DNA of 64,000 nucleotides from the IMG/VR virus record IMGVR_UViG_3300026274_000001. One strand, 5' to 3'. Below are positions 10,277 to 58,864 of the stretch, piece by piece. The DNA is from a virus. Lineage: Duplodnaviria; Caudoviricetes. Position 1 is the first letter of the stretch. Every line of letters begins with the position of its first letter. The notes below the pieces were generated by a model. The model was not told the origin of the DNA. It did no database searches and worked only from the letters and a program-made list of their open reading frames with translations. The position numbers were made by a program, and so were the translations under genes.

Positions 10277-10343
10277 GCCGTGTGGCTCTTGCATTTGCAT
10301 TCATATGAAATTACACTAAAGAAAATAACTGAAAGGAAGTCAC

Positions 10344-10646
10344 ATGAGCATCTCGGTCGAAGAAATCGCAATTGATGTTAAACAACTGGTTGACAGCTTA
10401 ATCACCCAACACGATACCAAATACGATCGGTTGTTACTTGAAGTAAAAGAAATGAAAAGGGAATTCATACACGCAATTGACGAAGCTCGTGTGATTCTGC
10501 TTGAACACAAGGACAATGCCCTGACCGCCAATGCGATCGAATGTGAAGGTTACCTGCGTGCATTGCTTTCGATGCAAGTGGGCTTCAATAGGACTTTTGA
10601 TTCTTTCATAAAAGAAGATGAGACTCCACATGATGATTCGAACTGA
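10344..10646 (+). CDS. hypothetical protein
   Basis: SD AAGGAAG; downstream of TTGCAT-17-TACACT promoter carrying TTCATATGAA. Confidence 0.7.
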   Translation: MSISVEEIAIDVKQLVDSLITQHDTKYDRLLLEVKEMKREFIHAIDEARVILLEHKDNALTANAIECEGYLRALLSMQVGFNRTFDSFIKEDETPHDDSN

Positions 10647-11118
10647 AGAAGACGTCATCCGTGCTTACGGTTATGCGACTGATCTGTCCAAGTTGCTTCG
10701 AAACTATTTCGAATTGTGGCGTAAGCATTGCAACGGAATCAACAACATCACAATTCCCAAAGGCAAGTTCTGGGTCCAAGTACTCAGGCCGGTAAGTGAA
10801 ACGATCTTGTTGGTTCGTATTGTCAATATTGATAAAACGGAGCATTCACTAGAATACCGTACGCCAATATATGATCTTGGTGCTAGTGAAAACGATGGGG
10901 CAGATGGCGTATTGTATTACGATACTGGTACTAATACCTGGTTCGAAGACCTTCTGGATGGCTTTCGCGTCAATGTTTCAGTACCAGGATTATTGTGTGA
11001 AGACGTCGAGGCACATTTGATTGAACTTCGCAGAGATCACGACGAACGTGAACGTGAAAAAGCACGAGTGCAAGAAATTCAGGAACTTGAAAATAGACTT
11101 ACTCAGCTCAAGAAGTAG
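10630..11118 (+). CDS. hypothetical protein
   Basis: overlapping start; coiled-coil C-terminus. Confidence 0.7.
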   Translation: MMIRTEEDVIRAYGYATDLSKLLRNYFELWRKHCNGINNITIPKGKFWVQVLRPVSETILLVRIVNIDKTEHSLEYRTPIYDLGASENDGADGVLYYDTGTNTWFEDLLDGFRVNVSVPGLLCEDVEAHLIELRRDHDEREREKARVQEIQELENRLTQLKK

Positions 11119-11218
11119 GCTGGACGATGTAGTTGCATAGCAACAATTCCATGACAGTGTTGCTCCTTACTACGGTTAGCTATAGATTAAATGCGGTGGC
11201 TAATTAAGGGGAACGATC

Positions 11219-11563
11219 ATGTTTACCGTATTACGCTTGCGTTTACGACGCAGGGCGAACACTAGCAAATTCACGAAACGAGTAGCTTGGCAGGAACCGT
11301 GGACTGATGTTATAACTGACTTCTGTTCACATTTAACGTCAGAGTCGGATTTCAAACCAGAAGAGTTAAAGGACAAGTTGGTATCGCTAGTTCAAATGGA
11401 ACTGTTTTTCCGAACTACGTCCTGGGTGGATTCCAGTGACTTGGCTAAAATTGAATCATATACCACGTCTCTGATTCAGTTTGCTGAAGAAATTGAGCAG
11501 ATAGAACAAGACTTGCTGGCTGGAGGTTCGCCATTCGCCAATAATTATAGCTGCATGGTGTAG
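11219..11563 (+). CDS. hypothetical protein
   Basis: SD AAGGGG. Confidence 0.65.
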   Translation: MFTVLRLRLRRRANTSKFTKRVAWQEPWTDVITDFCSHLTSESDFKPEELKDKLVSLVQMELFFRTTSWVDSSDLAKIESYTTSLIQFAEEIEQIEQDLLAGGSPFANNYSCMV

Positions 11564-11597
11564 ACATTCACATGTGACTATGGTTGTTTTGTACAAT

Positions 11598-11623
11598 AAG
11601 AGCGCTAGAGAAGGCGCTCTTTT
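11598..11623 (+). terminator. intrinsic terminator
   Basis: AAGAGCGC-8-GCGCTCTTTT. Confidence 0.65.
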
Positions 11624-11698
11624 GCCATGTGGCTTTTATTCGCTTGACTTACATTGGTAATCATTTAAAATGAATGCGTAACCACTGAAGGAGTAATC

Positions 11699-12133
11699 AT
11701 GCTGCCTATGTTCCAAAAGATCTTCGGCTCGAAGACCTCAGAACCAATGAATTCGCAACTGTCAAAAATCCTGCTCGATATCGGCCCTGCAAAGACAGAC
11801 GAAAAGTTTGACGGCTGGTATCATTTCATAAAAGATGTGGTCTCATCATCCAAACAACAAAATGACGCCTTAGAATGGGTGAAAGATTCCGGTGCCTGCA
11901 AGTACGAACACGTCTTGTGGAAGTCAATCGCCAGTAACATCTACTTCCGCACTAAACGGCATCCAGATATCGAAGCAATCAAACAACTGGATCGAGCCGC
12001 AGTCAATAACTGGGATTACATCAATCAACTCGCATACAACTGCATGCGATACGAAGCCGAACTACTGGCGGCTCCCGACCAAGAAGCACTGACAACCCTG
12101 CGCGAAATTACCGCATCACTGGCATCGGAGTGA
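11699..12133 (+). CDS. hypothetical protein
   Basis: SD AAGGAG; TTGACT-16-TAAAAT upstream. Confidence 0.75.
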   Translation: MLPMFQKIFGSKTSEPMNSQLSKILLDIGPAKTDEKFDGWYHFIKDVVSSSKQQNDALEWVKDSGACKYEHVLWKSIASNIYFRTKRHPDIEAIKQLDRAAVNNWDYINQLAYNCMRYEAELLAAPDQEALTTLREITASLASE

Positions 12134-12420
12134 ACGTGGCCAAAGTCAAAGTCACCATAGAAATGGATATCGATCCCCGCTTCCTAGAACAAGACGGTAA
12201 GGGAAAACCAGCCCCCGGCTTCGCGGAACAATACGTATTCGATCACTTGATCAAAGCAGCAGAACTGCATCATCGCGTAAACAGTCTACGTATCATCACT
12301 AGTAAAACAGTGGACCCCGAAACCATCCAGGCAATGATCAGACTCAATGAAATACACCTGGATACCCTCAGTAAAGCTGAACAACGTATGGTAATAGAAT
12401 ACCTACCAGACACTCTATAA
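12130..12420 (+). CDS. hypothetical protein
   Basis: GTGA overlap. Confidence 0.7.
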   Translation: MNVAKVKVTIEMDIDPRFLEQDGKGKPAPGFAEQYVFDHLIKAAELHHRVNSLRIITSKTVDPETIQAMIRLNEIHLDTLSKAEQRMVIEYLPDTL

Positions 12421-12448
12421 CCCTCACCACTGCTCCAGTAATGAGCGA

Positions 12449-14292: not shown

Positions 14293-14530
14293 ATTCGACG
14301 GACGGCATATAGCCAGATTGACTTTATATTCTACTTGAACAACACCGAGAGATCAAGTGAAATTTCATTTGGTTGCAGGAAACTTTTGGAAGTCCTGGTG
14401 CCTTTTCCGTTCTTATAGTAGGCGCTCGTTCGCATTATCAATCAAGCATTAAGTGAAAATAATCATTTGGCGCTTGCATCTGTGCCACACGAGCGTATCA
14501 TGTGAATAAGATAACAGACCGGAGAATGCA

Positions 14531-16016: not shown

Positions 16017-16078
16017 TCGCTTGTGTTCCTAGCCATATGAACTTAGAATGGTTTATGTGAATATCAGCAGGAGCGAGT

Positions 16079-19048: not shown

Positions 19049-20329
19049 ATGAGAGAACTACCAACAACCGTACACGAAGCCCCACACTATATTGGGCAAA
19101 CGGTAACCATGTATATGATTCTGGAAACCCTACGCGATCAGAAACACATGCAATTCATCATTGGACGGGAACGCACTGGCACTTTGCAGCTTGTGATTCA
19201 AAAGTCCAAAGTCGCAAACCATGCCGATATCTCGGAACTCCAACCCGGCTCTACATTTGCTGTGACTGGTACACTAGTCGAAGCTACCCAAAGCAAGACT
19301 CAGGGTATCGAGATGCAGGTTGATAGTGTTGAGATTTTCTCCAAAGCATGGCCGCGCCCTATCACGGAGGAGTCAGGTATTGAAGCACGCTTTGCTCATC
19401 GAGTCGTTGACTTGAAACTTCCAAAGTGGCAGCTGATGATGAAAATCAGAAGTGCCTTTGAAATGGGATGTCGCGAGTACGCACTGGAAAACGGCTGTAC
19501 GGAGTTGCATACTCCGAAGCTGATGGCCAGTGCCAGCGAAAGCGGTTCACAAGTATTCAAAGTTCAGTACTTCGACAAGTTTGCTTATTTGGCCCAGTCA
19601 CCACAGTTTTATAAGCAGATGGGCGTAGCATCAGGCCTTGATGGCGTGTTTGAAATTGGTCCAGTGTTCCGTGCTGAAGAAAGCCATAGCTCCCGCCACA
19701 TGACTGAATTTACTGGCCTGGACGTTGAATTTGCTTGGGCATTTACCACTCAGGATGTGATGACCTTTGAACTTCAAATGCTGCGTCGTGCATTTGAAAA
19801 GTTGCGTCCATTTGCTGCGCAAGCCAAAGAACTGTTTGGCGTTGAACTGCCTGAACACCCAGAATGTCGATTCATGACGCTTGCTGAAGCAAAGGAAATT
19901 GTCAAAGAACGTGGTATTATTCTTCCTGCCTCTGTGGACTTGTCTGACGAAGCAGAACGGGTGCTATATGAAATTACCGGCATTGACTTGATCTTTGTTA
20001 CCGACTATCCAATAGGTAAGCGTCCGTTCTATCATATGTGGGACAAAGAAAAGGGTATCACCCATAGCTTTGACTTGATCTTCAAGGGTATTGAAATCAC
20101 CACTGGTGCGTTGCGGGAACATCGACTCGATATCTTAACTGCGCAAGCAATTGAAAAGGGTGTTGACCCCAAGTCGATCGACCATTACCTTGACAACTTC
20201 CGCTATGGCTGTGCTCCTCATGGTGGGTTCGGTCTGGGTGTTGAACGTGTGATTGCAAAGCTCCTAGGGCTCTCTAGTGTGAAGGAAGCTGCATTTGTTC
20301 CTCGTGACCCAGATCGCCTCGTTCCATAA
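19049..20329 (+). CDS. aspS: aspartyl-tRNA synthetase (archaeal/eukaryote-like short type; possibly non-discriminating)
   Basis: OB-fold RDQKHMQF..RERTG; YLAQSPQFYKQ; FEIGPVFRAEESHSSRHMTEF; GIEITTG; PHGGFGLGVER; FVPRDP. Confidence 0.92.
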   Translation: MRELPTTVHEAPHYIGQTVTMYMILETLRDQKHMQFIIGRERTGTLQLVIQKSKVANHADISELQPGSTFAVTGTLVEATQSKTQGIEMQVDSVEIFSKAWPRPITEESGIEARFAHRVVDLKLPKWQLMMKIRSAFEMGCREYALENGCTELHTPKLMASASESGSQVFKVQYFDKFAYLAQSPQFYKQMGVASGLDGVFEIGPVFRAEESHSSRHMTEFTGLDVEFAWAFTTQDVMTFELQMLRRAFEKLRPFAAQAKELFGVELPEHPECRFMTLAEAKEIVKERGIILPASVDLSDEAERVLYEITGIDLIFVTDYPIGKRPFYHMWDKEKGITHSFDLIFKGIEITTGALREHRLDILTAQAIEKGVDPKSIDHYLDNFRYGCAPHGGFGLGVERVIAKLLGLSSVKEAAFVPRDPDRLVP

Positions 20330-20389
20330 ACTGCTTGATACGATGCTCATATGAACTTATCATGTGAGCATCATTTTCATGGAGGTATT

Positions 20390-21668: not shown

Positions 21669-21755
21669 TATCAAGTAGACTGCTATTCATTTAATGCTTG
21701 AATAAACAACCAAATGAATATATCATGAACGTATGACTATTGACCTGGAGCGTTC

Positions 21756-22152: not shown

Positions 22153-22207
22153 TCATTTGGTGCTTGCAACCAAGTTCAAATGAACACATAATAGGAACAT
22201 GGTAAAC
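22153..22207 (+). promoter_or_regulatory. family early promoter (type example)
   Basis: TCATTT..TTGCAA-ccaagttcAAATGAaca-CATAAT-aggaac-ATGGTAAAC. Confidence 0.8.
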
Positions 22208-22225
22208 AACAAAGAGGAAGCAAAA

Positions 22226-22828: not shown

Positions 22829-22883
22829 TCATTTAACACTTGCTACCATGTTCAAATGAACTTACCATAGGAACATGGTAAAC
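22829..22883 (+). promoter_or_regulatory. family early promoter
   Basis: TCATTT..TTGCTA-17-TACCAT-6-ATGGTAAAC; ACCATGTTC/GAACATGGT arms. Confidence 0.8.
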
Positions 22884-22900
22884 AAACAAGGAGAAGGTAA

Positions 22901-23122
22901 ATGAACGTAGATCAAGTTAAAACCGCCCTGTTGAATAACGTTGAAAACGAACAAACGCAGGACGACGGTGTTTGGGGTAGTGTGTATCTCGACAACGCTC
23001 GGTTTGATCTGAAGATCAGTAAGCACAGCTTCGCTGGTTATCTGTCCGCACTTGAAGGCCGTGGCGAATATCGCCAGTCGCCCGACGACGATGGTTATTT
23101 TGGTCGTGTGAAAGTCAGCTAA
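22901..23122 (+). CDS. hypothetical protein
   Basis: SD AGGAG. Confidence 0.75.
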   Translation: MNVDQVKTALLNNVENEQTQDDGVWGSVYLDNARFDLKISKHSFAGYLSALEGRGEYRQSPDDDGYFGRVKVS

Positions 23123-23139
23123 CGTTCAAGGAGTATTAT

Positions 23140-23319
23140 ATGGCCGGTCTAATGTATGAGTGGACTGTGAAATTCAAAGAAGGCTTCGAAATGAAGATAC
23201 CGGCCGACAGTGAATTTATGGTTCGTCAAGAAGTGAAAGAGCACTTGGATGCTCTTGGGTTTGGTGATTGCCCAATTGCGAGCATAAAGGTTGGGCGTCG
23301 ATTGTTTCCTGAAAAATAG
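23140..23319 (+). CDS. small hypothetical protein (not in ORF track)
   Basis: SD AAGGAG, 59 aa. Confidence 0.6.
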   Translation: MAGLMYEWTVKFKEGFEMKIPADSEFMVRQEVKEHLDALGFGDCPIASIKVGRRLFPEK

Positions 23320-23320
23320 T

Positions 23321-23375
23321 TCATTTAACGCTTGCAACCAAGTTTAAATGAACGCATCATAGATACATGGTAAAC
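23321..23375 (+). promoter_or_regulatory. family early promoter
   Basis: TCATTT..TTGCAA-17-CATCAT-6-ATGGTAAAC. Confidence 0.8.
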
Positions 23376-23393
23376 AACTTAGGAGAAAACAAG

Positions 23394-23789
23394 ATGAGCT
23401 ACGCACAACAAACTGGCAGCTTGGTCAATCATCTGTTTGCACGTGGTGTTAAGGGTCAGCCGACTCCGGAAGTTGGAATGGGTGCAACGCTGTTGAGCTA
23501 CACTGATCGTCATGCAGCAACGATCTGCAAGGTCGAAACGATCCGCGGTGTTCTGTATATCGGCGTGCAAGCAGATAACGCAGTGCGTATCGACAAAAAT
23601 GGCATGAGCGAAAGCCAAGAATATTCCTACTTGCCTGACCCGAACGGTTACGTGCAGATGTTCCGCTTGGGTAAGAGCGGAATGTGGGAAGCGATCGTGA
23701 AGAACACGGAAACGGGTCGCTGGAAAAAGACTAATAATGGTGGTCTGCGGATCGGTCACCGCGAAACGTATCACGACTTCAGCTTCTAA
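23394..23789 (+). CDS. hypothetical phage protein
   Basis: SD AGGAG; PEVGMGAT..TDRHAATI motif. Confidence 0.75.
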   Translation: MSYAQQTGSLVNHLFARGVKGQPTPEVGMGATLLSYTDRHAATICKVETIRGVLYIGVQADNAVRIDKNGMSESQEYSYLPDPNGYVQMFRLGKSGMWEAIVKNTETGRWKKTNNGGLRIGHRETYHDFSF

Positions 23790-23833
23790 GCTTAGAAGCT
23801 GCTACGCAAAAAGCGGAACTAAGTTCCGCTTTT
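23781..23833. terminator. 20-bp perfect palindrome plus intrinsic terminator
   Basis: AGCTTCTAAGCTTAGAAGCT then AAAAGCGGAAC-taa-GTTCCGCTTTT. Confidence 0.75.
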
Positions 23834-23902
23834 GTTCATTTGACGCTTGTGTTTTAATCATATGAACGTATAATGTAGTATGGTTAAAAACGGGAGAGAT
23901 AC

Positions 23903-24340
23903 ATGAAGGTACCGCCAGTTGGCTCAAAGGTCACTGTTATCGTTAGCAACGATACTAGCTGGATGCTCATCGATGCTCCACAGGAACGTATCATTTCCGG
24001 GACAGTTGTAAGAAGTGCAGATTGGGATGCTGAAAATACATTTCGGTTATTCACTGGCGACCCCAACAACCCCACCTCAGTCATTCCCGTCTCCCACGTA
24101 AAGAGCGTAACTGACGGAGCTGGCAAGACCGTTAAAATGAATGCGGTGCGTATGATTGATCGTGGTGAACCCAAGATCGATGCATGGCAGGTAACTGGTA
24201 GCAAGGGTGACATCTACACTGTTACTCGAACGGATGACTTCTGGACTTGCTCTTGCGTTGGCTTTCAATTCAAGCGTAATTGTGGCCATATCAAGAAGAA
24301 ACAAGAAGAACTGGCAAGCAAGAAAGCTGTTGCCAGTTGA
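23903..24340 (+). CDS. SWIM zinc-finger protein
   Basis: YTVT..WTCSCVGFQFKRNCGHI (CxC..CxH). Confidence 0.8.
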   Translation: MKVPPVGSKVTVIVSNDTSWMLIDAPQERIISGTVVRSADWDAENTFRLFTGDPNNPTSVIPVSHVKSVTDGAGKTVKMNAVRMIDRGEPKIDAWQVTGSKGDIYTVTRTDDFWTCSCVGFQFKRNCGHIKKKQEELASKKAVAS

Positions 24341-24364
24341 ATTCTTACATATGGGAGTGGCGTT

Positions 24365-24523
24365 ATGACTGATATGTTTGACTTTCTGCAAGAAGCATAC
24401 GACCAAGGCTCAGACGCTTACTACGCAGGGCTCCCACGCGCCAGTAACCCGCGGATATCAGACGAAATGCGTGAATCGTGGTTTGCTGGCTATGATAGGG
24501 CCAAAGAACTTGATGATGAATAA
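24365..24523 (+). CDS. Rmf/CrpP-like small protein (not in ORF track)
   Basis: LQEAYDQGSDAYYAG..NP..RESWFAGYDRA follows the RMF pattern; GGGAG upstream. Confidence 0.55.
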   Translation: MTDMFDFLQEAYDQGSDAYYAGLPRASNPRISDEMRESWFAGYDRAKELDDE

Positions 24524-24587
24524 TGCTTGATTGATTCACCATATGAATACATAATTCAAATATGGTGATAACTGAAAAGGGGAACAT

Positions 24588-24926: not shown

Positions 24927-24942
24927 GCGACACTGCATCAAC

Positions 24943-24970
24943 AAAAAGACCAGCAAATGCTGGTCTTTTT
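24943..24970 (+). terminator. intrinsic terminator
   Basis: AAAAAGACCAGCA-aa-TGCTGGTCTTTTT. Confidence 0.8.
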
Positions 24971-25047
24971 CATTTGATTCAAATAATGCTTGATTGGTTG
25001 CCATATGAACGTATCATAAGAACATGGTAAACAGGCAAGGAGATAAA

Positions 25048-25419: not shown

Positions 25420-25501
25420 AGCGATTATCAATGGTAATGCTTGATTCTATTGCCATATGAACATAGAATTGATACATGGTAAACAAACAAGGAGAAACAA
25501 A

Positions 25502-26090: not shown

Positions 26091-26122
26091 CACTTGCAAG
26101 GATAGTCATATGAACATAATAT

Positions 26123-26467
26123 ATGGCTATCTTTTACTTTGGGAGAATCACAGTGGAACAGTATAGTGAAGGTTGGTATAAGCACTTTACGGCAGTTCAA
26201 ATAGAAGCCTTACTTACTGCTGGCTTCGTTCGTGTCTCTCACAGTGGTGAGCATGGTTTCAACAAACGGGTGGCGTACAACCAACTGCCCCAAGATGACA
26301 TTGAGGATGTCATGAGTCCCGATGATATCATCCTGGGTAAGGAAGAAGTCATCGTACGAATTTATGCGGACGACGGCAGCGTTTCAATTGAAACCGCAGA
26401 GGCATACGTTGGCCCGATCCCAGCAGACAGCAAACTTGCGGAAAAGATCCTGACTAGCTGCTTTTAA
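26123..26467 (+). CDS. hypothetical protein
   Basis: follows family promoter. Confidence 0.7.
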   Translation: MAIFYFGRITVEQYSEGWYKHFTAVQIEALLTAGFVRVSHSGEHGFNKRVAYNQLPQDDIEDVMSPDDIILGKEEVIVRIYADDGSVSIETAEAYVGPIPADSKLAEKILTSCF

Positions 26468-26744: not shown

Positions 26745-26820
26745 CTTCATTTAACTGTTGATCTCCGCCTCAAGTGAACATATCATTTGATACATGGTAA
26801 AACACTTTACGGAGAAACAA

Positions 26821-27887: not shown

Positions 27888-27892
27888 AACTG

Positions 27893-27936
27893 TTGACGCC
27901 ATGTTCAGGTGAACGTATCATTTGAACATGGTAAAC
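27893..27936 (+). promoter_or_regulatory. family early promoter
   Basis: TTGACG-17-TATCAT; CCATGTTCAGGTGA-acgta-TCATTTGAACATGG. Confidence 0.8.
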
Positions 27937-27949
27937 AACAGGAGCTGAT

Positions 27950-28815: not shown

Positions 28816-28885
28816 TCATTTGGCGCTTGACGTCGTGTTCATATGAAAGCACAATAGGAACATGGTGAAAAACAAGGAGCGCTAA

Positions 28886-29242: not shown

Positions 29243-29308
29243 TTGCTTGCTTGGTACGTCATATGAACATAATATGACGTACGGTAACTCACAGGGAGAA
29301 TAATCGAT

Positions 29309-30136: not shown

Positions 30137-30183
30137 TACTTGCAGGTATAGCCATATGAATTTACTATAGCTACACACCAATC

Positions 30184-30753
30184 ATGGAGAGCATAATGGA
30201 TAACAAATACGGTAGCATGTTGATAAACGGGAAACGAGTTGATGAGCTGACTTTGGAAATTCCGTTTATGAATGTAGCCCAATGTTATTCATTCTCCAAT
30301 GCCATACTCGATATGAGTGCTGCTGCTGAGGACGTACAAGAAGGTGGATACAACGAAACTATCGAAGGGTTGTCTGAGCCTTTCGAGGCGGTGATTGCTC
30401 GTCAGGAAGTATTGGCGGTTGCTACTGCTGCCGAAGTAGAACGTGGTATCGACTCTGGACGCCTTATTAAGGTTGATCATACCGTTTATGAACGTAGCGT
30501 TCACGCGTTGCTGGCTATGCGTTCTATGTTCGGAGACTTGGTTACTGACGTGTTTGTCGATCAACAGTATTTGGAGCACCAGGCTCTCGAGAGCCGTGCA
30601 TTTGGTGAAGAACGAATTATTAAAGCAGAAATCAACAACGACGAGCAACTTGAAATGGATATCAGCGGTCTTAATATGATCGTGCAATTCGCCGATGGCC
30701 GTCGTATCGAAATGACCAATTCTGAATGGGGTCACTTCAAGCGTATCGAATAA
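30184..30753 (+). CDS. hypothetical protein
   Basis: follows family promoter; start may be 30196. Confidence 0.7.
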   Translation: MESIMDNKYGSMLINGKRVDELTLEIPFMNVAQCYSFSNAILDMSAAAEDVQEGGYNETIEGLSEPFEAVIARQEVLAVATAAEVERGIDSGRLIKVDHTVYERSVHALLAMRSMFGDLVTDVFVDQQYLEHQALESRAFGEERIIKAEINNDEQLEMDISGLNMIVQFADGRRIEMTNSEWGHFKRIE

Positions 30754-31731: not shown

Positions 31732-31800
31732 ATTTCATTTGGTTCTTGCAACAATGTTCAAGTGAACATATCATTGAGTATGATTAATCAAGGGGGAAAT

Positions 31801-32160: not shown

Positions 32161-32234
32161 TTCAGTTGGCACTTGCAACCAGGTTCAAATGAATCTACCA
32201 TAGGAACATGGTAAACAAACGCAAGGAGCAACAA

Positions 32235-32600: not shown

Positions 32601-32679
32601 AAATAATTCATTTAGCGCTTTACTTGTGAGTCAAGTGAACGCATCATAGATACATGGTAAACAACACACGGAGAAATAA

Positions 32680-34355: not shown

Positions 34356-34427
34356 ATTCACTTTGTGCTTGCAACCACGTTCATATGAAACTAATATACG
34401 AGCATGGTAAACGCAAAGGAGAACAAA

Positions 34428-35435: not shown

Positions 35436-35504
35436 TCATTTAAACGGTGCTTGCTACTTTGTTCATATACACGTATTCTTTAGCAAACATCACTCTAATT
35501 AATT

Positions 35505-36314: not shown

Positions 36315-36479
36315 TAAGACCACATAAAATGGTGGCATGTACTATCATTGTTGGTAGGCTGATAGGTTTGTCTGGTAGGTATAACAATAATTTAACTGAA
36401 AAATAGAACATGGTTCACTTGATTCACTTACCATATGAACGTATCATTAGTGAATACACAAGAGCTAGGGGAGTTGATC

Positions 36480-38204: not shown

Positions 38205-38275
38205 ATGCTTGAACTCCCATTCATATGAATATAGAATGAGCTCCATAGAGGGGCTCATTCTATTTGGAGAACGAC

Positions 38276-38989: not shown

Positions 38990-39069
38990 TGATGTATAAG
39001 TTGAAATTATAGTAGATTCATTTAACAAGTGAATATACCATATGAATAACAAAACAACCGGTAACTACA

Positions 39070-40029: not shown

Positions 40030-40073
40030 TTGCATGCCTTGCCATATGAACTTATCATTTGAACATGGTAAAC
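40030..40073 (+). promoter_or_regulatory. family early promoter
   Basis: TTGCAT-17-TATCAT-6-ATGGTAAAC. Confidence 0.8.
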
Positions 40074-40091
40074 AACTGTGGAGCGCAAACT

Positions 40092-40880: not shown

Positions 40881-40943
40881 TAAGGCTTGTAGCCAGACTT
40901 AGATGACTATATCATTTGAGTCTGGAGGAAATGCAAGGGGTGA

Positions 40944-41830: not shown

Positions 41831-41906
41831 TGATATAGGGTTCATTTTCCGCTTGATGCTATGTTCATATGAAATTACCATATGCTCATAGCCAAATAAC
41901 AGGAGA

Positions 41907-42146
41907 ATGAATATGACCCCTAAGGTCCGGAAACATATTTTTGAACTGACTAACGCATTCGCTGAAGTCGAACAAACCGTAGAGACTTGGTCGAACACCA
42001 ATCGATTCCAAGAACGAGCCCTTCGCACCCTGCAACTGCAACGGGAAACATTGCAAAATTACATCGCCCGTCGTAACATGAAAGGTATCATGGCCCTTAC
42101 TGTGCCGCATGTACACGGAACAAATGTGATTTGGAACGTAGCTTGA
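41907..42146 (+). CDS. hypothetical protein
   Basis: SD AGGAG after family promoter. Confidence 0.7.
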   Translation: MNMTPKVRKHIFELTNAFAEVEQTVETWSNTNRFQERALRTLQLQRETLQNYIARRNMKGIMALTVPHVHGTNVIWNVA

Positions 42147-42202
42147 TTGGTTTGCCAGATGAACCTATAATAGGTGTATGGTAAACAAACAAGGAACATC
42201 AA

Positions 42203-42634: not shown

Positions 42635-42698
42635 AGCTTGCAGCCACGATCAGATGAATATATCATTTGAGCATGGTAAACAACTGGGAGAACTAATC

Positions 42699-43026: not shown

Positions 43027-43106
43027 GTGACTAGTCATTCCACTGTTGATGTACAGTTCAAATGAACGTACTATGTGAACATAATAAACAACACAACGGC
43101 ATAAAC

Positions 43107-43616
43107 ATGGCAATCTACTATGTTGGCGACGCTCCAGATCTAACTAAGTTAATCCTGGAACGCTATTTCCCCAGAAACGTAATACCTGAACCTTTAGAGT
43201 CCGAGATTCGGCGGTATTTGTGGAATACTGCGAACTACGGTTATGTTGTCGACTTTAAAGATGAAGGTAAAGACGACATCATGTTTCGCAAGTACAATAA
43301 TAATTTCATATATGACAAGCGATCAGGCTTAGTCATGTTTGACTTTGATTTTGGTTACCATCAGCTCATGATGGCGTACTTGGAAGGGCTACACTACACA
43401 GACATTACCAAGCCCATCGAACACTGGCAATATGACGCCAAGTACCCCACTGACTACAATTCAACATCACAGCTTGCTGATGATTATGTGCGCAACGGCC
43501 ATGGCATCTTTATGTCAAGTACGCATGATGATCATACGGTCATGGTTAGTAGCATATTCGCATGGAATCCCATCGAACGTACCGTGTTCAGCGATTACAA
43601 AAAGATGATTATTTAA
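43107..43616 (+). CDS. hypothetical protein
   Basis: follows family promoter. Confidence 0.7.
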   Translation: MAIYYVGDAPDLTKLILERYFPRNVIPEPLESEIRRYLWNTANYGYVVDFKDEGKDDIMFRKYNNNFIYDKRSGLVMFDFDFGYHQLMMAYLEGLHYTDITKPIEHWQYDAKYPTDYNSTSQLADDYVRNGHGIFMSSTHDDHTVMVSSIFAWNPIERTVFSDYKKMII

Positions 43617-43679
43617 ACCTTGCTTTGGTTGCCATATGAACTTACTATAAGAATACGGTAACCAAACAAGGGGAACAAA

Positions 43680-45524: not shown

Positions 45525-45586
45525 CGCTTGATTGTTTGCCATATGAATGTATCATAATCAATATGGTACACGACAAGGAGAACAAC

Positions 45587-46487: not shown

Positions 46488-47026
46488 TGGATAAGCTATC
46501 AAAAATTACGGCATTTTTACTGCTGTATCATAATTATCACCGCACGGCGGACGACTACAAACTAGTTGGGCCGGTGGTAGCTAAGCTATTGCTTAACGAC
46601 GTGGTGACTCTCCTTCGTGATGAAGGGACGGAAATTCATGAGCTTGAAGAATACCATTATGGTATGACTCAGTTGATTGCTGACTGTGCTCTATTGCAAG
46701 CACACGGTTATATTGAGTCTCGACATGTCAAGAAGATCCTCAAAGACTGCTGGAATTATCCCTATGTGGGGTTTGATCTAGTGCAGTATGCCCATGCATC
46801 TAAAATCTTTGATGAAGCTAGTGGTGACTCTCTTATGATTGAAGTGCGTGCGGTACTGGCTGATGTCAACTATGCGAAAACTGTCGAACAGGTGAAGGGT
46901 GGTAGGGACAAAGCCATCGGCGCTCTCGTTGGTGCAGTAATGAAGAAGGTGAAGGGCGATCCCAAGCAGATTAAAGAAATGCTGGCAAGCGAAATGGGCG
47001 TAACCCTATCAGCATTAAGCAGTTGA
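46487..47026 (+). CDS. GatB/YqeY C-terminal (tRNA-binding) domain protein
   Basis: VRAVLA..VEQVKGGRDKAIGALVGAVMKKVKGDPKQIKEML resembles GatB tail. Confidence 0.75.
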   Translation: MDKLSKITAFLLLYHNYHRTADDYKLVGPVVAKLLLNDVVTLLRDEGTEIHELEEYHYGMTQLIADCALLQAHGYIESRHVKKILKDCWNYPYVGFDLVQYAHASKIFDEASGDSLMIEVRAVLADVNYAKTVEQVKGGRDKAIGALVGAVMKKVKGDPKQIKEMLASEMGVTLSALSS

Positions 47027-47080
47027 TGTACCGCTCAAGTGAGTTTATCATTTGAATATGGTAAACACACAGGAGCGGTA

Positions 47081-47741: not shown

Positions 47742-48077
47742 ATGGAAAACTTGTACTGGATAACATACGACGATCAGAATGGCGACGTGGTGCCGGACGG
47801 TAAAGTTCGTCAATATGTAGATGACTTCTTGACGGGACCTACCCGTTCGTGCGTCGTTGGCTCAAGTTTATTGATCGATGAATTCCGTATGTTGGTAGTT
47901 CGAGGCTTGGTTGCTGGAAATCAAGTTCGAGTTAATTATGATGGCGAGTGGCATCCCATCAATGCCAATGCAGTACTGGTAAAGTATCCGCCAGATTTGA
48001 GCTTGCATTACGCTAGTGAATTGCTTCGTTTTTCATGCAGGAAACAACGAGCTGAACGAGAATCATCCAACTGTTGA
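47742..48077 (+). CDS. hypothetical protein, triplet paralog 2
   Basis: VVPDG..YVD..GSSLLIDEFR. Confidence 0.7.
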   Translation: MENLYWITYDDQNGDVVPDGKVRQYVDDFLTGPTRSCVVGSSLLIDEFRMLVVRGLVAGNQVRVNYDGEWHPINANAVLVKYPPDLSLHYASELLRFSCRKQRAERESSNC

Positions 48078-48131
48078 TTCTTAGCTCAAGTGAACGTATC
48101 ATTTGAATATGGTAAACGCATAGGAGTTTAA

Positions 48132-48788: not shown

Positions 48789-48822
48789 TTGCAACACAGC
48801 CAGATGAGTGTATCATCTGGCT
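48789..48822 (+). promoter_or_regulatory. promoter with perfect -10-centred palindrome
   Basis: TTGCAA-16-TATCAT; AGCCAGATGA-gtgta-TCATCTGGCT. Confidence 0.75.
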
Positions 48823-48844
48823 ATCATTGTTTAGGGAGAGTGAA

Positions 48845-49117
48845 ATGGATGCAGCTAAGATACACGTTGATTTGGTTGATCACCAGTTTAATGGTGGTGG
48901 TATCAGTGGTGAAGTTAATAGCCCGGAGCTGTTCAAACCGATTGCTTTCGACTACGACGATTGGCGCGGTCCAATGCTCTTCAACACTAAAGTAGACGAC
49001 GCGTTGTATAATAGCCAGCTGCCTTGGCTTGACCCCTTGGATGCCTTGGTAGTAGTTGACGTAATTGAACGGGTGGTCGTTGAATATTTGCGGGCCCGAT
49101 TTGAACAAGCAGCTTGA
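48845..49117 (+). CDS. hypothetical protein
   Basis: SD GGGAG. Confidence 0.7.
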   Translation: MDAAKIHVDLVDHQFNGGGISGEVNSPELFKPIAFDYDDWRGPMLFNTKVDDALYNSQLPWLDPLDALVVVDVIERVVVEYLRARFEQAA

Positions 49118-49197
49118 TTTAGAATATAGATGAACGTACCATTTGAACATCGCATAAACGAGGGGAACGCTATGAATCAGATGTTTGAGGTAATTGC

Positions 49198-51898: not shown

Positions 51899-52321
51899 AT
51901 GCAGCGCGTCAATAACACGGTTTACCTAGGTGTCAAGGATTTGACAACTGGTGCCGATTTCATAACCACCGCTACCATCCCACGTTTCAGTGGTCGAAAG
52001 AAGCGAGTAAGCTCAAACATCACCTACAAGCGATGGAGAGGTACCACGGCTACGTTGGATGAACTAGTATTACGCACAGCAGAACAACTGGTTAGCCAGA
52101 GGCAACGTGGCTATAATGCCTCATTTTCAGCTGAAGCCATCGCATACATGATGAAGATCAAAGTTGATCAGATTCGTCATTCATTGCATCGATTGAACCT
52201 TGTTGGTAAAGTGTCTCAGCGCTACAAGCATTGTGCTGAAGGCACGAATCGTGCTTGGTTTCATTATGGAAATGATAGTGGATGGGCGGCAAACAGATAT
52301 ACACTTTGGTTTAATGGCTAA
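51899..52321 (+). CDS. putative HTH DNA-binding protein
   Basis: FSAEAIAYMMKIKVDQIRHSLHRLNLVGKV helix-turn-helix pattern. Confidence 0.55.
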   Translation: MQRVNNTVYLGVKDLTTGADFITTATIPRFSGRKKRVSSNITYKRWRGTTATLDELVLRTAEQLVSQRQRGYNASFSAEAIAYMMKIKVDQIRHSLHRLNLVGKVSQRYKHCAEGTNRAWFHYGNDSGWAANRYTLWFNG

Positions 52322-53383: not shown

Positions 53384-53452
53384 TGCCATCAGGGCTTGCG
53401 TAGTTCTTCATATGAATTTATTATATGAGCAACATAACTTGACGGAGTTGAT

Positions 53453-56453: not shown

Positions 56454-56517
56454 GAGATATGGCTTGATTTCATAGCCATATGAATGCATCATGTGACCAT
56501 CGTAACTAGAGGGGAAC

Positions 56518-56931: not shown

Positions 56932-56966
56932 TTGACATTGCCAGTTATCCCATTATAATTGGCAAT
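56932..56966 (+). promoter_or_regulatory. consensus sigma70 promoter with palindrome
   Basis: TTGACA-16-TATAAT; ATTGCCAGTTAT-6-ATAATTGGCAAT. Confidence 0.8.
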
Positions 56967-56992
56967 AAGAATAAAAATAATAAAGGATTAAC

Positions 56993-57322
56993 ATGAAAGC
57001 CATAGCAATCGCAATTGGATGCGTTATCGTATTTCTAATTGCAGTGATCGGTCTAACTGAATTCGGATTTCGACTCGATCAGCATTATCAACCACGAGAA
57101 GAACAAGTTCGTAGAGATACGTTCGCACAAAGTCAAACATACAACGAAGGTATGGCTCGTGACTTGCAAAACCTGCGTCAAGCATATTTGGATGCAGACA
57201 CACCAGAGAAAAAGGGTGCAATTCAATCTACAGTACGTCAGCGTTATGCTGGGTATGACGTAGATCAGCTTCCACCTGATCTAGTTCTGTTTTACAACAA
57301 GATGTTGAACCCAGCCCAATAA
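56993..57322 (+). CDS. membrane-anchored protein
   Basis: N-terminal TM helix; SD AAGGA. Confidence 0.75.
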   Translation: MKAIAIAIGCVIVFLIAVIGLTEFGFRLDQHYQPREEQVRRDTFAQSQTYNEGMARDLQNLRQAYLDADTPEKKGAIQSTVRQRYAGYDVDQLPPDLVLFYNKMLNPAQ

Positions 57323-57331
57323 GAATAAAAT

Positions 57332-57844
57332 ATGAAACTGTATCATTTGTATCTACTGCCGTCTGCTATTTGTGGTGTTGCCTTAATGTTGGCTGGTTGC
57401 GATCAACAACCGACAGCAGATCAGATCCAGAATCAGCGCCAAGAAGCTGTAAACAAGCAAGCGGTCATGTCAGTGGGTTTGCCGACTATCCAAAACTTCC
57501 AAGAGAAGCGGGTTCTTAAGCAAATTTTTGAACAACGAGATCAAGCGATCTCCACTGTCACCTATCTGACAGACTTCAATGCGCATTTGCATAAGCTTTG
57601 CGATTCGATTGGTTACACGATTCCAGGTGGCACTCAGTTCACCAATCCACAACATTTGGAACAAGCCTACAGCGGTAGTGGCTATTATCCTATGCCACAG
57701 GCAGATCCAAATGGCCTGTACTCACCAGCCTCTGCTGACGGTTCTTACATCATCTGCAAGAATCCAGCAAACCCCACTGAAACCGGTGCGGTATATTCTG
57801 AGCCGAAGCTAATCACAAGTCCGTTCCCACTGGACGTGAAGTAA
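57332..57844 (+). CDS. lipoprotein
   Basis: lipobox LMLAGC. Confidence 0.8.
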   Translation: MKLYHLYLLPSAICGVALMLAGCDQQPTADQIQNQRQEAVNKQAVMSVGLPTIQNFQEKRVLKQIFEQRDQAISTVTYLTDFNAHLHKLCDSIGYTIPGGTQFTNPQHLEQAYSGSGYYPMPQADPNGLYSPASADGSYIICKNPANPTETGAVYSEPKLITSPFPLDVK

Positions 57845-57909
57845 GTTTGAATGTTGCCAGTTATCGTGTAATATTGCGAACTGGCAACTTTGCCATCTAA
57901 AAGAATAAT

Positions 57910-58119
57910 ATGAATAATCTTATCGCCCCCATTATCGTGTTTGTGCTAGCAGTAATCGCCAATGTGTTGGTTCATGTTGTACATTTGCCAGACACCGGCA
58001 GTTATCTTTTTACGTTGCTGCTGTCGGGCGCTTGGCTTTATTCAGAAGATAAAATTAACAAGCTTGAAAAGCAAGTTGCTGCCCTGCAGGCAGATATCAT
58101 TAAAGGACATACCTCTTAA
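57910..58119 (+). CDS. small membrane protein with coiled-coil tail
   Basis: two TM segments. Confidence 0.7.
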   Translation: MNNLIAPIIVFVLAVIANVLVHVVHLPDTGSYLFTLLLSGAWLYSEDKINKLEKQVAALQADIIKGHTS

Positions 58120-58121
58120 TC

Positions 58122-58388
58122 ATGAATGTCGATGTTGAATACCCTAATGCCCGTCGTATTATTCCTCAAGAAAAACGCGATGAGCCGGCTGCGAGTGCGT
58201 TGACTGGTAGCACGCTAACAATTGATAGCTGGCATCTCAAGGAATTGCTTACTGACGTAGTATCAAAGCAAACTGGCCATAAGGTCACTGCCGTACAGTT
58301 CAATACTGGAGCAACTGCGAGTGTTTGGTCTACAGATCCAAAAGATGTATTTCAATCAGTGACCGTGACCTTGGGTAACAAACTGTAA
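58122..58388 (+). CDS. hypothetical protein
   Basis: coupled ORF. Confidence 0.65.
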   Translation: MNVDVEYPNARRIIPQEKRDEPAASALTGSTLTIDSWHLKELLTDVVSKQTGHKVTAVQFNTGATASVWSTDPKDVFQSVTVTLGNKL

Positions 58389-58789
58389 TGGGTACACCTT
58401 GCGACATCGCTATTGTGCATCTTGACGGAACCGTGGAAGCAATAACAGTCAACTATGACGGATATTTGTCGGGCATGGGGCCATTGTTGCTGCATCACTA
58501 CGATGATCGTCAAAAGATTATTGATATGCTTGCGCTTGGTAATTATAGCTCTTTGGGTGAAGACTCGCAGAATTCGATCGCCTATATACGTGATCGTGGT
58601 GAAGGGCCGGGCGAGTTGTCAAGGACGTTTTTGAGCACACACGATTACGACGAATCTTTACGCTACGATGCTACCTACCAATACATTTTCGGGAACGACG
58701 ACACTTGGTATTATTCGTCTTCGAACGAAGGGGAACTTCCGTTGGTGGTTGCCTTGGCCTTTCTCGCAAAGTACGAAGATTTCCGTTGA
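58388..58789 (+). CDS. conserved phage hypothetical protein
   Basis: MGT..I..ITVNYDGYLSGMG..LL.HY motif. Confidence 0.75.
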   Translation: MGTPCDIAIVHLDGTVEAITVNYDGYLSGMGPLLLHHYDDRQKIIDMLALGNYSSLGEDSQNSIAYIRDRGEGPGELSRTFLSTHDYDESLRYDATYQYIFGNDDTWYYSSSNEGELPLVVALAFLAKYEDFR

Positions 58790-58864
58790 TTACTGCCATA
58801 CGTAATGTATCATACACATATGGCAAGTAAGTGAAAGAACTGGCGCATCAAGTTGGATAGATAA

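Follow-up and report, generated by a model that had tools for sequence, protein, structure and literature searches.

The window, a stretch of 64,000 nucleotides from an uncultured jumbo phage of soil, carries about 40 near-identical host-type promoters that head small, putatively early genes. A scan with a 33-nt PWM gave 40 sites of at least 10 bits on the + strand, 38 of them above 20 bits, compared with 2 sites on the - strand and 0.27 in shuffles; the 38 strong sites all lie on the gene strand, from 10.3 to 56.5 kb. The pattern CAWRTGAANNNANNAT was matched 30 times (29 on +) against 0.32 expected, and a definition blind to the spacer box (TTG-N19-21-[TC]AnnnT followed by SD and ORF) gave 40 matches on + and 1 on -, with 31 of the 40 belonging to the PWM family. 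These counts, far beyond chance, confirm the proposal of a first-pass annotation that a large family (more than 30) of related sigma70-type promoters is present. By sequence, its members appear to be sigma70-type promoters, placed before small genes that a large phage probably expresses early.

The family consensus is cTTG(A/C), a 17-nt spacer and TAYCAT, with SD and ATG about 30 nt further on. The downstream gene starts 25-34 nt from the -10, the stop codon of the upstream gene ends a median of 13 nt before the -35, and a cassette of about 75-85 nt makes up the whole gap from the stop codon of one small gene to the next ATG. Two elements are constant: CA-NN-TGAA, a box in the spacer, and the reverse complement of this box, overlapping the -10. 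An upstream TCATTT (at most 1 mismatch), present in 14 of the 38 window sites, marks a conserved subclass (U-class). Its members show a better -35, frequently carry C at -12, and are AT-rich in the upstream stretch that immediately follows the stop codon. The cassettes are as follows (-35 / -10; PWM in bits; MFE as given).

10289..10343 (+), cassette, TTGCAT / TACACT, leader to ATG 10344, terminator before, no hairpin; PWM 26.3, MFE -1.5
16021..16078 (+), cassette, TTGTGT / TAGAAT, ATG 16079; PWM 29.2, MFE -10.1
20335..20389 (+), cassette, TTGATA / TATCAT, 13-bp hairpin with non-consensus arms GATGCTCATATG / CATGTGAGCATC; PWM 38.2, MFE -19.7
21687..21755 (+), U-class cassette, TTGAAT / TATCAT; PWM 29.4, MFE -1.4
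22153..22225 (+), U-class cassette, TCATTT, TTGCAA / CATAAT; PWM 34.1, MFE -7.6
22829..22900 (+), U-class cassette, TTGCTA / TACCAT, outer stem ACCATGTTC / GAACATGGT; PWM 38.3, MFE -15.8
23311..23393 (+), U-class cassette, TTGCAA / CATCAT, a unit with gene 23394-23789
23836..23902 (+), cassette behind a terminator, 16-nt spacer, TATAAT; PWM 21.4, MFE -9.9
24527..24587 (+), cassette, TTGATT / CATAAT, arms TCACCATAT / ATATGGTGA; PWM 29.8, MFE -12.3
24989..25047 (+), cassette behind a terminator, TATCAT; PWM 25.4, MFE -6.2
25441..25501 (+), cassette, TTGATT / TAGAAT; PWM 35.1, MFE -5.4
26094..26152 (+), cassette, TTGCAA / TAATAT, arms GATAGTCATAT / ATATGGCTATC; PWM 31.8, MFE -15.0
26747..26820 (+), U-class cassette, TTGATC / TATCAT; PWM 27.2, MFE -8.1
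27893..27949 (+), cassette, TTGACG / TATCAT, best consensus hairpin (15 bp, loop ACGTA); PWM 33.7, MFE -20.6
28816..28885 (+), U-class cassette, TTGACG / CACAAT; PWM 31.2, MFE -9.4
29247..29308 (+), cassette, TTGCTT / TAATAT, arms GTACGTCATAT / ATATGACGTAC; PWM 30.1, MFE -16.4
30140..30195 (+), cassette, TTGCAG / TACTAT; PWM 31.4, MFE -5.3
31735..31800 (+), U-class cassette, TTGCAA / TATCAT; PWM 35.1, MFE -7.0
32162..32234 (+), U-class cassette (TCAGTT), TTGCAA / TACCAT; PWM 32.7, MFE -10.1
32608..32679 (+), U-class cassette, TTTACT / CATCAT; PWM 28.4, MFE -7.1
34358..34427 (+), U-class cassette (TCACTT), TTGCAA / TAATAT; PWM 30.1, MFE -8.4
35451..35504 (+), degenerate cassette behind a terminator, TTGCTA / TATTCT; PWM 24.9, MFE -2.3
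36419..36479 (+), cassette, TTGATT / TATCAT, arms ATTCACT / AGTGAAT; PWM 36.6, MFE -6.9
38209..38263 (+), cassette, TTGAAC / TAGAAT; PWM 28.8
39013..39069 (+), weak cassette, TAGATT / TACCAT; PWM 22.3
40030..40091 (+), cassette, TTGCAT / TATCAT; PWM 37.6, MFE -6.9
40887..40930 (+), cassette, TTGTAG / TATCAT, arms CCAGACTTAGATGA / TCATTTGAGTCTGG; PWM 21.5, MFE -19.7
41842..41912 (+), U-class cassette, TTGATG / TACCAT; PWM 37.2, MFE -13.7
42143..42202 (+), cassette, TTGATT / TATAAT; PWM 32.1, MFE -13.0
42638..42698 (+), cassette, TTGCAG / TATCAT; PWM 33.9, MFE -12.6
43046..43110 (+), cassette behind a terminator, TTGATG / TACTAT; PWM 30.1, MFE -7.4
43620..43679 (+), cassette, TTGCTT / TACTAT, arms TTTGGTTGCC / GGTAACCAAA; PWM 32.2, MFE -9.8
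45527..45586 (+), cassette, 16-nt spacer, TATCAT; PWM 24.0, MFE -8.4
47023..47080 (+), cassette, TTGATG / TATCAT; PWM 25.0, MFE -12.2
48074..48131 (+), cassette, TTGATT / TATCAT; PWM 32.1, MFE -7.0
49114..49171 (+), cassette, TTGATT / TACCAT; PWM 25.4, MFE -1.9
53396..53452 (+), cassette behind a terminator, TTGCGT / TATTAT; PWM 28.6, MFE -8.2
56464..56517 (+), cassette, TTGATT / CATCAT; PWM 34.8, MFE -6.2

One long inverted repeat, centred at -13 and with arms of up to 15 bp, takes in the box, the -10 and the sequence block that follows; the first-pass annotation had overlooked it. Covariation was analyzed in 112 sites from three genomes, the window and two related IMG/VR jumbo phages. Of all cells, 69.7% were paired; slid registers gave 26-48%, and shuffles 64.2% (0/500). 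The arms showed 130 double changes versus 72 (0/500 shuffles). The covariation score was 0.245, compared with 0.167 for shuffles and no more than 0.108 for slid registers. Covariation measures of this kind can be inflated by relatedness between cassette copies. The folding energy was -10.8 kcal/mol with the sites' own arms and -7.9 for swapped-arm chimeras (p 2.5e-8); random 43-mers fold at -6.5 kcal/mol, and the mean z of the cassettes is -3.0. Swapped arms still pair at 8.1 of 17 positions versus 4.25 at random, much of the complementarity being common to the consensus, and RNAalifold predicted no consensus pairs. At least 6 pairs symmetric about -13 occur in 61 of the 112 sites. With roughly 30% of cells left unpaired and no clear centred hairpin at about 45% of the sites, the hairpin is frequent but not obligatory.

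The mismatches on the sense strand comprise 184 G-T versus 93 A-C (p 5e-4), and those flanked by Watson-Crick pairs 45 versus 14 (p 1e-3); in an orthologous cassette a C-G pair is replaced by T-A. The G-T preference points to a single-stranded sense RNA and not to a symmetric duplex cruciform. It thereby bears on the proposal that the inverted repeat acts at the DNA level: supercoiling of the phage DNA would extrude it as a cruciform or hairpin, which would serve as a promoter switch (off or on) with superhelicity or as a structure-specific recombination hot spot. The fixed symmetry centre at about -13, the few sites with near-perfect 11-15 bp arms and 5-7 nt loops, and the coincidence of cassettes with module boundaries would suit such a structure, but most arms are imperfect, with G-T exceeding A-C about 2-3 to 1, and the strong -35/-10 conservation indicates ordinary duplex recognition by the host holoenzyme. 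The best-known case of hairpins in promoters is that of the N4 virion polymerase; no virion RNA polymerase is known to be used by this phage group. We consider a DNA-level role highly improbable.

Promoters without the standard box retain a hairpin over the -10 that is built from other sequences.

1545..1578 (+), weak outlier, TTGACG-N17-TATCGT; PWM 17.7 (8.4 with a refitted matrix), MFE -17.6
14474..14530 (+), box-variant promoter, TTGCAT-N16-TATCAT with CACACGA in place of the box, found by the box-blind regex only
48789..48850 (+), box-variant promoter, TTGCAA-N16-TATCAT, perfect 10-bp stem AGCCAGATGA / TCATCTGGCT over the -10; MFE -17.9
56932..56992 (+), box-less promoter, near-consensus TTGACA-N16-TATAAT, 12-bp stem of unrelated sequence over the -10; MFE -13.1
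58786..58830 (+), box-variant promoter, TTGATT-N16-TATCAT, arms TTACTGCCATA / TATGGCAAGTAA, read from the sequence

The last of these forms the right-hand limit of the region described in the first-pass annotation. At 14474, CACACGA pairs with TCATGTG after the -10, giving 10 pairs centred at -13, and 14 such pairs are found at 48789. In the outlier the box is ACGA and the -10 contains TCGT, a compensatory change within the -10 hexamer. Box and -10 have changed together in the variants at 1534 (ACGA with TATCGT), 48789, 14474 and 56932.

Positions 5988-61576 of the window (55.6 kb) are collinear with about 20 kb in each of two relatives (G001 and G002), and the inserted ORFans bear the cassettes. 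The cassette 23311..23393 and its gene form a unit that is relocated in G001, with 76% nucleotide identity to 329.09-329.56 kb; the homology begins at the cassette and ends 3 nt past the stop codon. On this sequence comparison, the region is a hyperplastic zone. The same cassette is present in related IMG/VR jumbo phages (NAMPT 73-77% identical) and absent from Vibrio phage 2.275.O, XaC1 and GAP32, where it was looked for. That the copies are clearly related, that cassettes recombine or move with their genes, and that a strong centred hairpin is missing at about 45% of sites would agree with a palindromy that lacks any function of its own and arose as a side effect while the copies evolved in concert (through recombination or gene conversion, or quasi-palindrome correction), with selection acting on -35, -10 and SD only. 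However, hairpins of unrelated sequence recur at the same place in box-less promoters, the architecture persists across genomes with proteins only 40-77% identical, and the G-T over A-C bias is unexpected under a neutral process, which makes this account very unlikely.

The first-pass annotation had read TCATTT and AAATGA as half-sites of one phage factor in a fixed TCATTT-N19-AWRTGA architecture. All ten sites it named do carry a TCATTT-type element with A(A/T)(A/G)TGA starting exactly 25 nt later (TCAGTT at 32162, TCACTT at 34358), and 23836 has the half-site at 24 nt; at 14463, for which 24 nt was also given, the sequence 24-25 nt downstream is ACACGA/CACGAG, which is no half-site. The layout is true of only the 14 sites with the upstream element, which is found in 26 of the 112 (23%) when relatives are included. 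The "third half-site", a TCATTT described as often overlapping the -10, is seen at 12 of the 38 window sites and tends to be missing where the upstream copy is present (odds ratio 0.26, p 0.012). Upstream variants (TCAGTT, TCACTT, TCATTC) come without matching changes in the box, and the 23-25 nt spacing arises simply because each element keeps a set position with respect to the -35 and -10. Most simply, the upstream TCATTT is a UP-like or auxiliary element and not a partner of the box. The box covaries with the -10 copy, and flanking arm positions outside any 8-bp box covary with each other too, leaving the one-factor claim unsupported; what was reported as half-sites is for the most part the pair of arms of a stem-loop that encloses the -10 box.

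Pairing is insufficient to explain C-22, A-21 and T-18 G-17 A-16 A-15, which are 96-100% constant even with a non-pairing partner base and so more constant than pairing requires. The constancy of C-22, A-21, T-18, G-17 and A-16, the retention of G-17 where its partner -9 is A or T, and the placing of the box where classical repressors act favor an operator array, a refinement of the first-pass idea, in which a nearly invariant 8-bp palindrome TCA-NN-TGA in the spacer (-23..-16), a weaker -10 copy (-10..-3) and an optional -46 copy bind a dimeric phage regulator, which would act as a common off-switch or activator for every early cassette. The inner stem would then be explained, since a palindrome repeated in direct orientation necessarily forms an inverted repeat with its own copy. 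Among the HTH candidates proposed earlier (39529, 51899, 52428), only 51899-52321 shows a weak winged-helix resemblance, of ArsR/MarR/IclR type (Atlas feature score 0.92, 10/10 best hits in one clan; fold search headed by winged-helix proteins), and it is conserved in both relatives that carry the cassette and was not detected in three that lack the box. Its structure model is nevertheless poor (pLDDT 57.6), the best fold-search E-value is 0.035, Pfam and PHROG searches gave no hit, and nothing ties it to the motif. Covariation is seen where the palindrome varies, at its centre (columns 21/35, with 30 double changes), and at outer arm positions that no box covers; like the joint changes of box and -10 in variant promoters, this speaks against an operator. 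Furthermore, TCANNTGA shows no enrichment away from the cassettes, with 26 occurrences against 24.7 expected, copies 23 and 13 nt apart misfit helical phasing, and the upstream copy, with its unmatched variants, is confined to 23% of sites. An operator array is possible but doubtful, and a dimeric phage regulator is unneeded to explain the data.

Our data are probably best accounted for by a PeSL-type (promoter/stem-loop) composite, in which a host sigma70-type early promoter is joined to a stem-loop, SD and start codon. Consensus, strand and position suggest that after injection the host RNA polymerase, carrying its primary sigma factor, would use cTTG(A/C)nn, the 17-nt spacer and TAYCAT, starting about 7 nt downstream at the A of the conserved CATGG and giving a leader of about 23 nt. 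Because the genes lie head to tail with few terminators, polymerases from upstream cassettes would read through the next cassette. In the read-through RNA the spacer box and its flank (consensus ACCATGTTCAWATGA) would pair with the -10 and first transcribed bases (TCATTTGAACATGGT), forming a hairpin stem of up to 15 bp around the loop AACnTA with its centre at -13, a structure for which covariation is the evidence; the cassette's own transcript cannot form it because it starts inside the right arm. By analogy, the hairpin may attenuate or punctuate read-through, or give the upstream mRNA a stable 3' end. The stems are not canonical intrinsic terminators, being A/U-rich and followed by AAACAAC instead of a U-tract, and no significant complementarity was seen between hairpin strength and upstream terminators (p 0.10). 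As the genome comparison shows, the repeated cassettes also delimit mobile gene modules in the hyperplastic region.

The tested stem-loops of RB49 are the model for the hairpin role proposed here. PeSL cassettes are known from T4-like phages (Arbiol 2010; Comeau 2014), the first-pass comparison with them was apt, and the best reading is that the present cassettes are a new variant of these rather than a new regulator-binding array. In PA5oct, a relative, about 39 TTGAC/TATAATA promoters have been mapped by RNA-seq (10.1101/406421).

The window contains a large family of closely related promoter-like sites. A search with the pattern CAWRTGAANNNANNAT gave 30 matches, 29 of them on the + strand, where 0.32 were expected. 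An iterated 33-nt matrix that spans the -35 to the -10 found 40 + strand sites scoring at least 10 bits, compared with 2 on the - strand and a mean of 0.27 in shuffled sequences; 38 sites exceeded 20 bits, and these span 10278-56453. The prevalence of the conserved spacer box (CA-NN-TGAA) is not a mere artefact of selection, because a pattern blind to the box (TTG, 19-21 nt, [TC]AnnnT, then an SD and an ORF of at least 35 codons) gave 40 + strand sites and a single - strand site, and 31 of the 40 were family members. The matrix and the box-blind pattern therefore bear out the first-pass annotation in its claim of more than 30 related sigma70-like promoters. A generic scan of 20 kb for sigma70 promoters and terminators did no better than shuffles (40 observed vs 33 for promoter-like and 16 vs 17 for terminator-like sequences), so that only the specific family is informative.

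In the aligned unit, (g)CTTG(A/C)nn is followed by a spacer that ends in (G/T)(T/C)CA-NN-TGAAC, one variable base, TA(T/C)CAT, (T/A)(T/G)GAACATGGTAAACAA, an SD and ATG. [quoted passage not shown] The stop codon of the upstream gene lies a median of 13 nt 5' of the -35, and the downstream start codon 25-34 nt (median 30) 3' of the -10. Readings of CTTGA, TGAAC and TAnnTTTG as sigma32, sigmaE/ECF, extended -10 or Bacteroidetes-type elements were dropped because their spacing or key bases misfit; strong SD usage also speaks against the Bacteroidetes type.

The spacer box is the reverse complement of the stretch that runs from the third base of the -10 onward. The consensus hairpin is ACCATGTTCAWATGA / loop AC-n-TA / TCATTTGAACATGGT, and its symmetry centre is the base immediately 5' of the -10 hexamer, at about -13. 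When the 38 window sites were folded, the loop was located at about -13 in most of them, with energies reaching -20.6 kcal/mol. Several sites have atypical arms that are still complementary, as follows.

Sites with atypical but complementary arms
20324: GATGCTCATATG / CATGTGAGCATC
29236: GTACGTCATAT / ATATGACGTAC
40876: CCAGACTTAGATGA / TCATTTGAGTCTGG
26083, 24516, 36408 and 43609: likewise atypical and complementary

The helix was examined in A1, an alignment of 112 sites in which the 38 window sites were joined by 74 sites drawn from 180 kb of G001 and G002, two related IMG/VR jumbo phages that carry the same cassette. Fifteen pairs were scored, columns 11-25 with 31-46. Standard pairs were formed in 69.7% of the cells, compared with 64.2% when the 3' letters were shuffled (0/500 shuffles reached the observed value) and 26-48% in slid registers. 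Changes on both sides of a pair were found in 130 cells vs 72 in shuffles (0/500), and the covariation score was 0.245, as opposed to 0.167 for shuffled sites and at most 0.108 for slid registers. Exchanging arms between sites reduced the pairing from 9.19 to 8.11 Watson-Crick pairs of 17 (permutation p < 2e-4), and sites with their own arms folded at -10.8 kcal/mol, compared with -7.9 kcal/mol for chimeras that carried the right arm of another site (p 2.5e-8) and -6.5 kcal/mol for random 43-mers (mean z-score of own arms -3.0). Mismatches were more often G-T than A-C, both overall (184 vs 93, p 5e-4, where composition predicts a ratio of 1.3) and where both neighbours pair (45 vs 14, p 1e-3). 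The bias suggests that the sense strand pairs with itself when single-stranded, most simply as RNA.

Promoters that were missed by the box matrix also keep a stem over the -10, made of unrelated sequence.

Promoters missed by the box matrix
48789: 10 perfect pairs, -17.9 kcal/mol
56932: 12-bp stem; promoter near consensus (TTGACA-N16-TATAAT)
14474 and 58786: stem over the -10
1545: box ACGA and -10 TATCGT, a compensated change within the -10 itself

Between the orthologous cassettes at 23321 in the window and 329.1 kb in G001, a C-G pair at the foot of the inner stem is exchanged for T-A.

The stem also has its limits. RNAalifold predicted no consensus pairs for the 112-site alignment, about 30% of the helix cells are unpaired, at least 6 centred pairs are present in only 61/112 sites, and much of the complementarity is already contained in the consensus. 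No Rfam match at or above the gathering score was found in the whole window. The stems are A/U-rich and are followed by AAACAAC without a U-tract, so the cassettes are not canonical terminators; the terminator scan passed only 20342-20372. Hairpins located behind a canonical terminator folded at -7.0 kcal/mol vs -9.9 kcal/mol otherwise, a trend that is not significant (p 0.10).

C-22, A-21 and the TGAA at -18 to -15 remain 96-100% constant also opposite bases that cannot pair with them, and G-17 remains G when -9 is A or T, so something besides pairing must constrain the box. The extra constraint could come from polymerase-spacer contacts, a loop-proximal recognition element or a protein. The protein might be a dimeric phage regulator, predicted to bind the box as a palindromic operator. 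The nearly invariant core of the box favours such an operator, and the gene at 51899-52321 is shared with G001 and G002, while searches of three box-less relatives did not detect it. However, the arms covary, TCANNTGA is about as frequent outside the cassettes as expected (26 vs 24.7), and the sole candidate protein has a weak winged-helix resemblance and no link to the motif. A regulator of this kind is considered unlikely. The HTH candidates named in the first-pass annotation held up only in part: 39330/39451, 51899 and 52428 had no Pfam or PHROG match, and the Atlas search found no match for 52428, while the small protein encoded at 51899-52321 (+ strand) weakly resembled winged-helix proteins of the ArsR/MarR/IclR (Atlas features 0.92) or RepE type. 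In a weak fold search, winged-helix proteins were on top with a best E-value of 0.035; the structure model is poor (pLDDT 57.6), and its PDB matches are all above E 0.03. Inverted "half-sites" in phage promoters may be the arms of a stem-loop and not operators.

The predicted transcription start, the seventh nucleotide after the -10, coincides with the A of a conserved ATG in 54/112 cassettes (for example at 22199, 23367, 27928, 32208 and 34404) and lies within 1 nt of it in 74/112. In 29 cases this ATG is in frame with the SD-linked start without an intervening stop, which gives an MVNN... extension; counted against the SD-linked start, frames 0:1:2 occur at 32:12:28. The transcripts of a cassette may begin with a 5'-terminal AUG, for leaderless-type initiation, and read-through RNA would bury the same AUG in the stem, so that promoter-proximal and read-through messages would be translated differently if the cassette were put to dual use. 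On such a dual-use reading, which we regard as quite improbable, the duplex DNA would act as an early promoter, and the read-through RNA would form a hairpin. A dedicated RNA- or DNA-binding factor of phage or host would recognise the invariant CA-NN-UGAA at the top of its stem and its AACnUA loop, and would process, attenuate or shut off well over 100 early cassettes genome-wide; the cassettes' own transcripts would start at the AUG that is masked in read-through RNA.

The family had originally been described through an upstream TCATTT in inverted orientation to an AAATGA-like half-site in the spacer. The observation is real, but it was described by way of a minority feature. At ten sites TCATTT or a one-base variant does start 25 nt from A(A/T)(A/G)TGA, and at 23836 the distance is 24 nt, as stated; at 14463, where a 24-nt pair had been reported, the second half-site is absent. 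With one mismatch allowed, the upstream TCATTT is present in only 14/38 window sites and 26/112 sites with the relatives included, and is thus not general. The subclass recurs in G001 and G002 and is richer in AT (71% vs 59% in other sites). Its TCATTT lies directly 3' of the upstream stop codon, often inside AAATAAT-TCATTT, tends to occur together with C at -12 (odds ratio 10.9, p 2e-4) and with the box variant CAAATGA, and is negatively associated with a TCATTT that overlaps the -10 (odds ratio 0.26, p 0.012). An alternative hairpin between the upstream element and the box was rejected: the variants TCAGTT, TCACTT and TCATTC are unmatched in the box and thus give no hint of pairing between the two. 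Their 25-nt distance is constant because both elements are fixed relative to the -35 and the -10. The upstream TCATTT may be a UP-like or auxiliary upstream element that marks a promoter subclass with a weaker -10. At 23809-23840, 24943-24975 and 35410-35445, the T-run of a canonical terminator located before the cassette runs straight into TTCATTT, so that the upstream "half-site" doubles there as a terminator tail.

The cassette is a trait of one uncultured sub-lineage. Megablast of 12 kb of the window against a phage collection gave no match. The window NAMPT shares 42-47% identity with its counterparts in three RaK2-type jumbo phages (Vibrio phage 2.275.O, Xanthomonas phage XaC1 and Cronobacter phage GAP32), and 73% and 77% with those of G001 and G002. 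Only control-level pattern counts were obtained in 2.275.O, XaC1 and GAP32, which argues for the sub-lineage restriction. Scanning IMG/VR with the exact 31-nt consensus gave no match, and two shorter scans gave mostly chance singletons except in the records G001, G002, G003, L131 and L202; scanning with a 16-nt core recovered the complete architecture in G001, the 290-kb contig G002 and a few further contigs. The phage genome G001 (IMGVR_UViG_3300037418_001546) is complete, measures 523,836 bp and has direct terminal repeats. The short pattern matched it 49 times in forward and 6 times in reverse orientation (control pattern 0), and copies of the cassette core number at least 55, nearly all of them on a single strand and located between 184 and 465 kb.

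Most genes of the window are small, and nearly all are encoded on the + strand. Approximately 24 anchor genes in the same order make 5988-61576 of the window collinear with 262.0-282.0 kb of G001 and 270.0-289.3 kb of G002, and the block measures 55.6 kb in the window vs about 20 kb in each relative. The extra DNA consists of ORFans, mostly with their own cassette. The unit made up of the cassette at 23311-23393 and the gene at 23394-23789 is found at a different location in G001, with 76% nucleotide homology that extends from the AT-rich cassette head to 3 nt past the stop codon. An apparently relocated unit of cassette plus gene such as this is the behaviour described for PeSLs, the promoter-early stem-loops of T4-type phages. 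Other genes in the window were identified as follows.

Other genes in the window
19049-20329, + strand: class II aminoacyl-tRNA synthetase of the Asp/Lys/Asn type (PF00152, E 2.3e-68, plus an OB anticodon-binding domain); no counterpart of the segment detected in the collinear stretches of G001 and G002
30726-31559 and 35505-36314, + strand: two R2K-clade ATP-grasp proteins (PF14243/PF18299), one with its own cassette; no counterpart of the pair detected in the collinear region of the relatives
37748-37987, + strand: DksA/TraR-type zinc-finger protein (PF01258, E 1.2e-7; phrog_54, E 1e-16), 71-73% identical in G001 and G002 and 42% in Vibrio phage 2.275.O; likely an RNA-polymerase secondary-channel modulator encoded within the early region
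60113-61576, + strand: DUF2828/DUF7788 protein (E 4.7e-43) at the right-hand end of the collinear block, 68-69% identical to the G001 and G002 copies

The window was found in public runs of soil metagenomes from 2017, and three soil metatranscriptome runs (X3-X5) contain the region as contigs of flat depth. The promoter repeats at which the RNA contigs break (22867-95, 25439-93, 27908-38 and 32178-220) are also those at which the DNA contigs break, which indicates assembly breaks at repeats and not transcript ends. Alternative contig joints were observed between cassettes, from 22893 to 27909 and from 25493 back to 24994. The sides of these joints are only 22-37 nt long and can reflect ambiguity of the assembly graph, which is probably what they are; deletion or circle junctions between cassettes would look the same.

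The cassettes were compared with several known promoter systems. The N4 virion RNA polymerase promoters are hairpins with 5-7 bp stems and 3-nt loops that are read by the phage polymerase on extruded DNA, without -35 and -10 boxes. They likewise form an early family with an inverted repeat whose centre lies about 12 nt 5' of the start. The T4 MotA middle promoters also combine a phage-specific conserved element with a sigma70-type -10, and GCTTG resembles the Mot-box core TGCTT. The analogy with the Mot box that had been drawn fails on spacing, however, since GCTTG(A/C) ends 19 nt before the -10: the T4 box (TGCTTtA, centred at -30) takes the place of the -35 and is 11-13 bp away from the -10, whereas the window TTG is at the canonical 17 nt. 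PF09114 and PF09010 (MotA, AsiA) had no match in G001 and G002, nor in the control genomes, which makes the controls uninformative, and the RNase III domain PF14622 had no match in G001 and G002. The related jumbo phage PA5oct, from the same broad clade, has about 39 TTGAC/TATAATA promoters at transcript starts mapped by RNA-seq, with neither a spacer box nor a hairpin over the -10 reported (10.1101/406421). The RaK2 genome paper contains no promoter analysis.

The closest resemblance is to the PeSLs, and our data indicate that the cassettes are probably a lineage-specific PeSL variant whose stem-loop straddles the -10. The data show their structure and modular context; their use as promoters, its timing and the role of the hairpin we infer. 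The comparison with PeSLs made in the first-pass annotation agrees with their structural and contextual features, namely a -35 and -10 at about 17 nt, a stem-loop, an AT-rich stretch with a stop, SD and ATG, and a hyperplastic location. The PeSL principle, in which portable promoter/stem-loop plugs express and shuffle small accessory genes, would thereby reach beyond T4-like phages, into RaK2/GAP32-related jumbo phages of an uncultured soil lineage whose genomes measure up to 524 kb. The cassettes would offer a compact model of how giant phages insulate and diversify long early-gene arrays, and a search model for the annotation of early genes in related metagenomic phages.

Among T4-type phages, the promoter consensus and the stem sequence are both lineage-specific (Comeau, Arbiol and Krisch 2014, PMC4122927). 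As with the PeSLs and PmSLs of PST/T4 and nt-1/KVP40, the window cassettes flank genes that differ between close relatives; unlike the window stems, those of PST/T4 and nt-1/KVP40 are A3-4G3-loop-C3T3-4 or AGNA-loop-TCNT, and PmSLs carry a Mot box where the window GCTTG is an ordinary -35 placed 17 nt from the -10. The PeSLs of RB49/phi1 consist of a sigma70-like early promoter, a stem-loop, an SD and an ATG, one per small ORFan; promoter and terminator/attenuator activity were measured in lacZ fusions, their stems terminate or attenuate transcription, and recombination between copies gives mini-circles (Arbiol et al. 2010, PMC2839356). [quoted passage not shown] RB49 and phi1 are T4-like, whereas the cassettes described here belong to a RaK2/GAP32-related soil jumbo phage. 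The RB49/phi1 stems are polyG/polyC and variable in position; in contrast, the window stems are A/U-rich, lack a U-tract, carry the conserved CA-NN-TGAA box, are always centred at -13 and take in the predicted +1. This regularity is unusual in that the stem always extends across both the -10 and the start site, with changes within the -10 hexamer compensated in the spacer.
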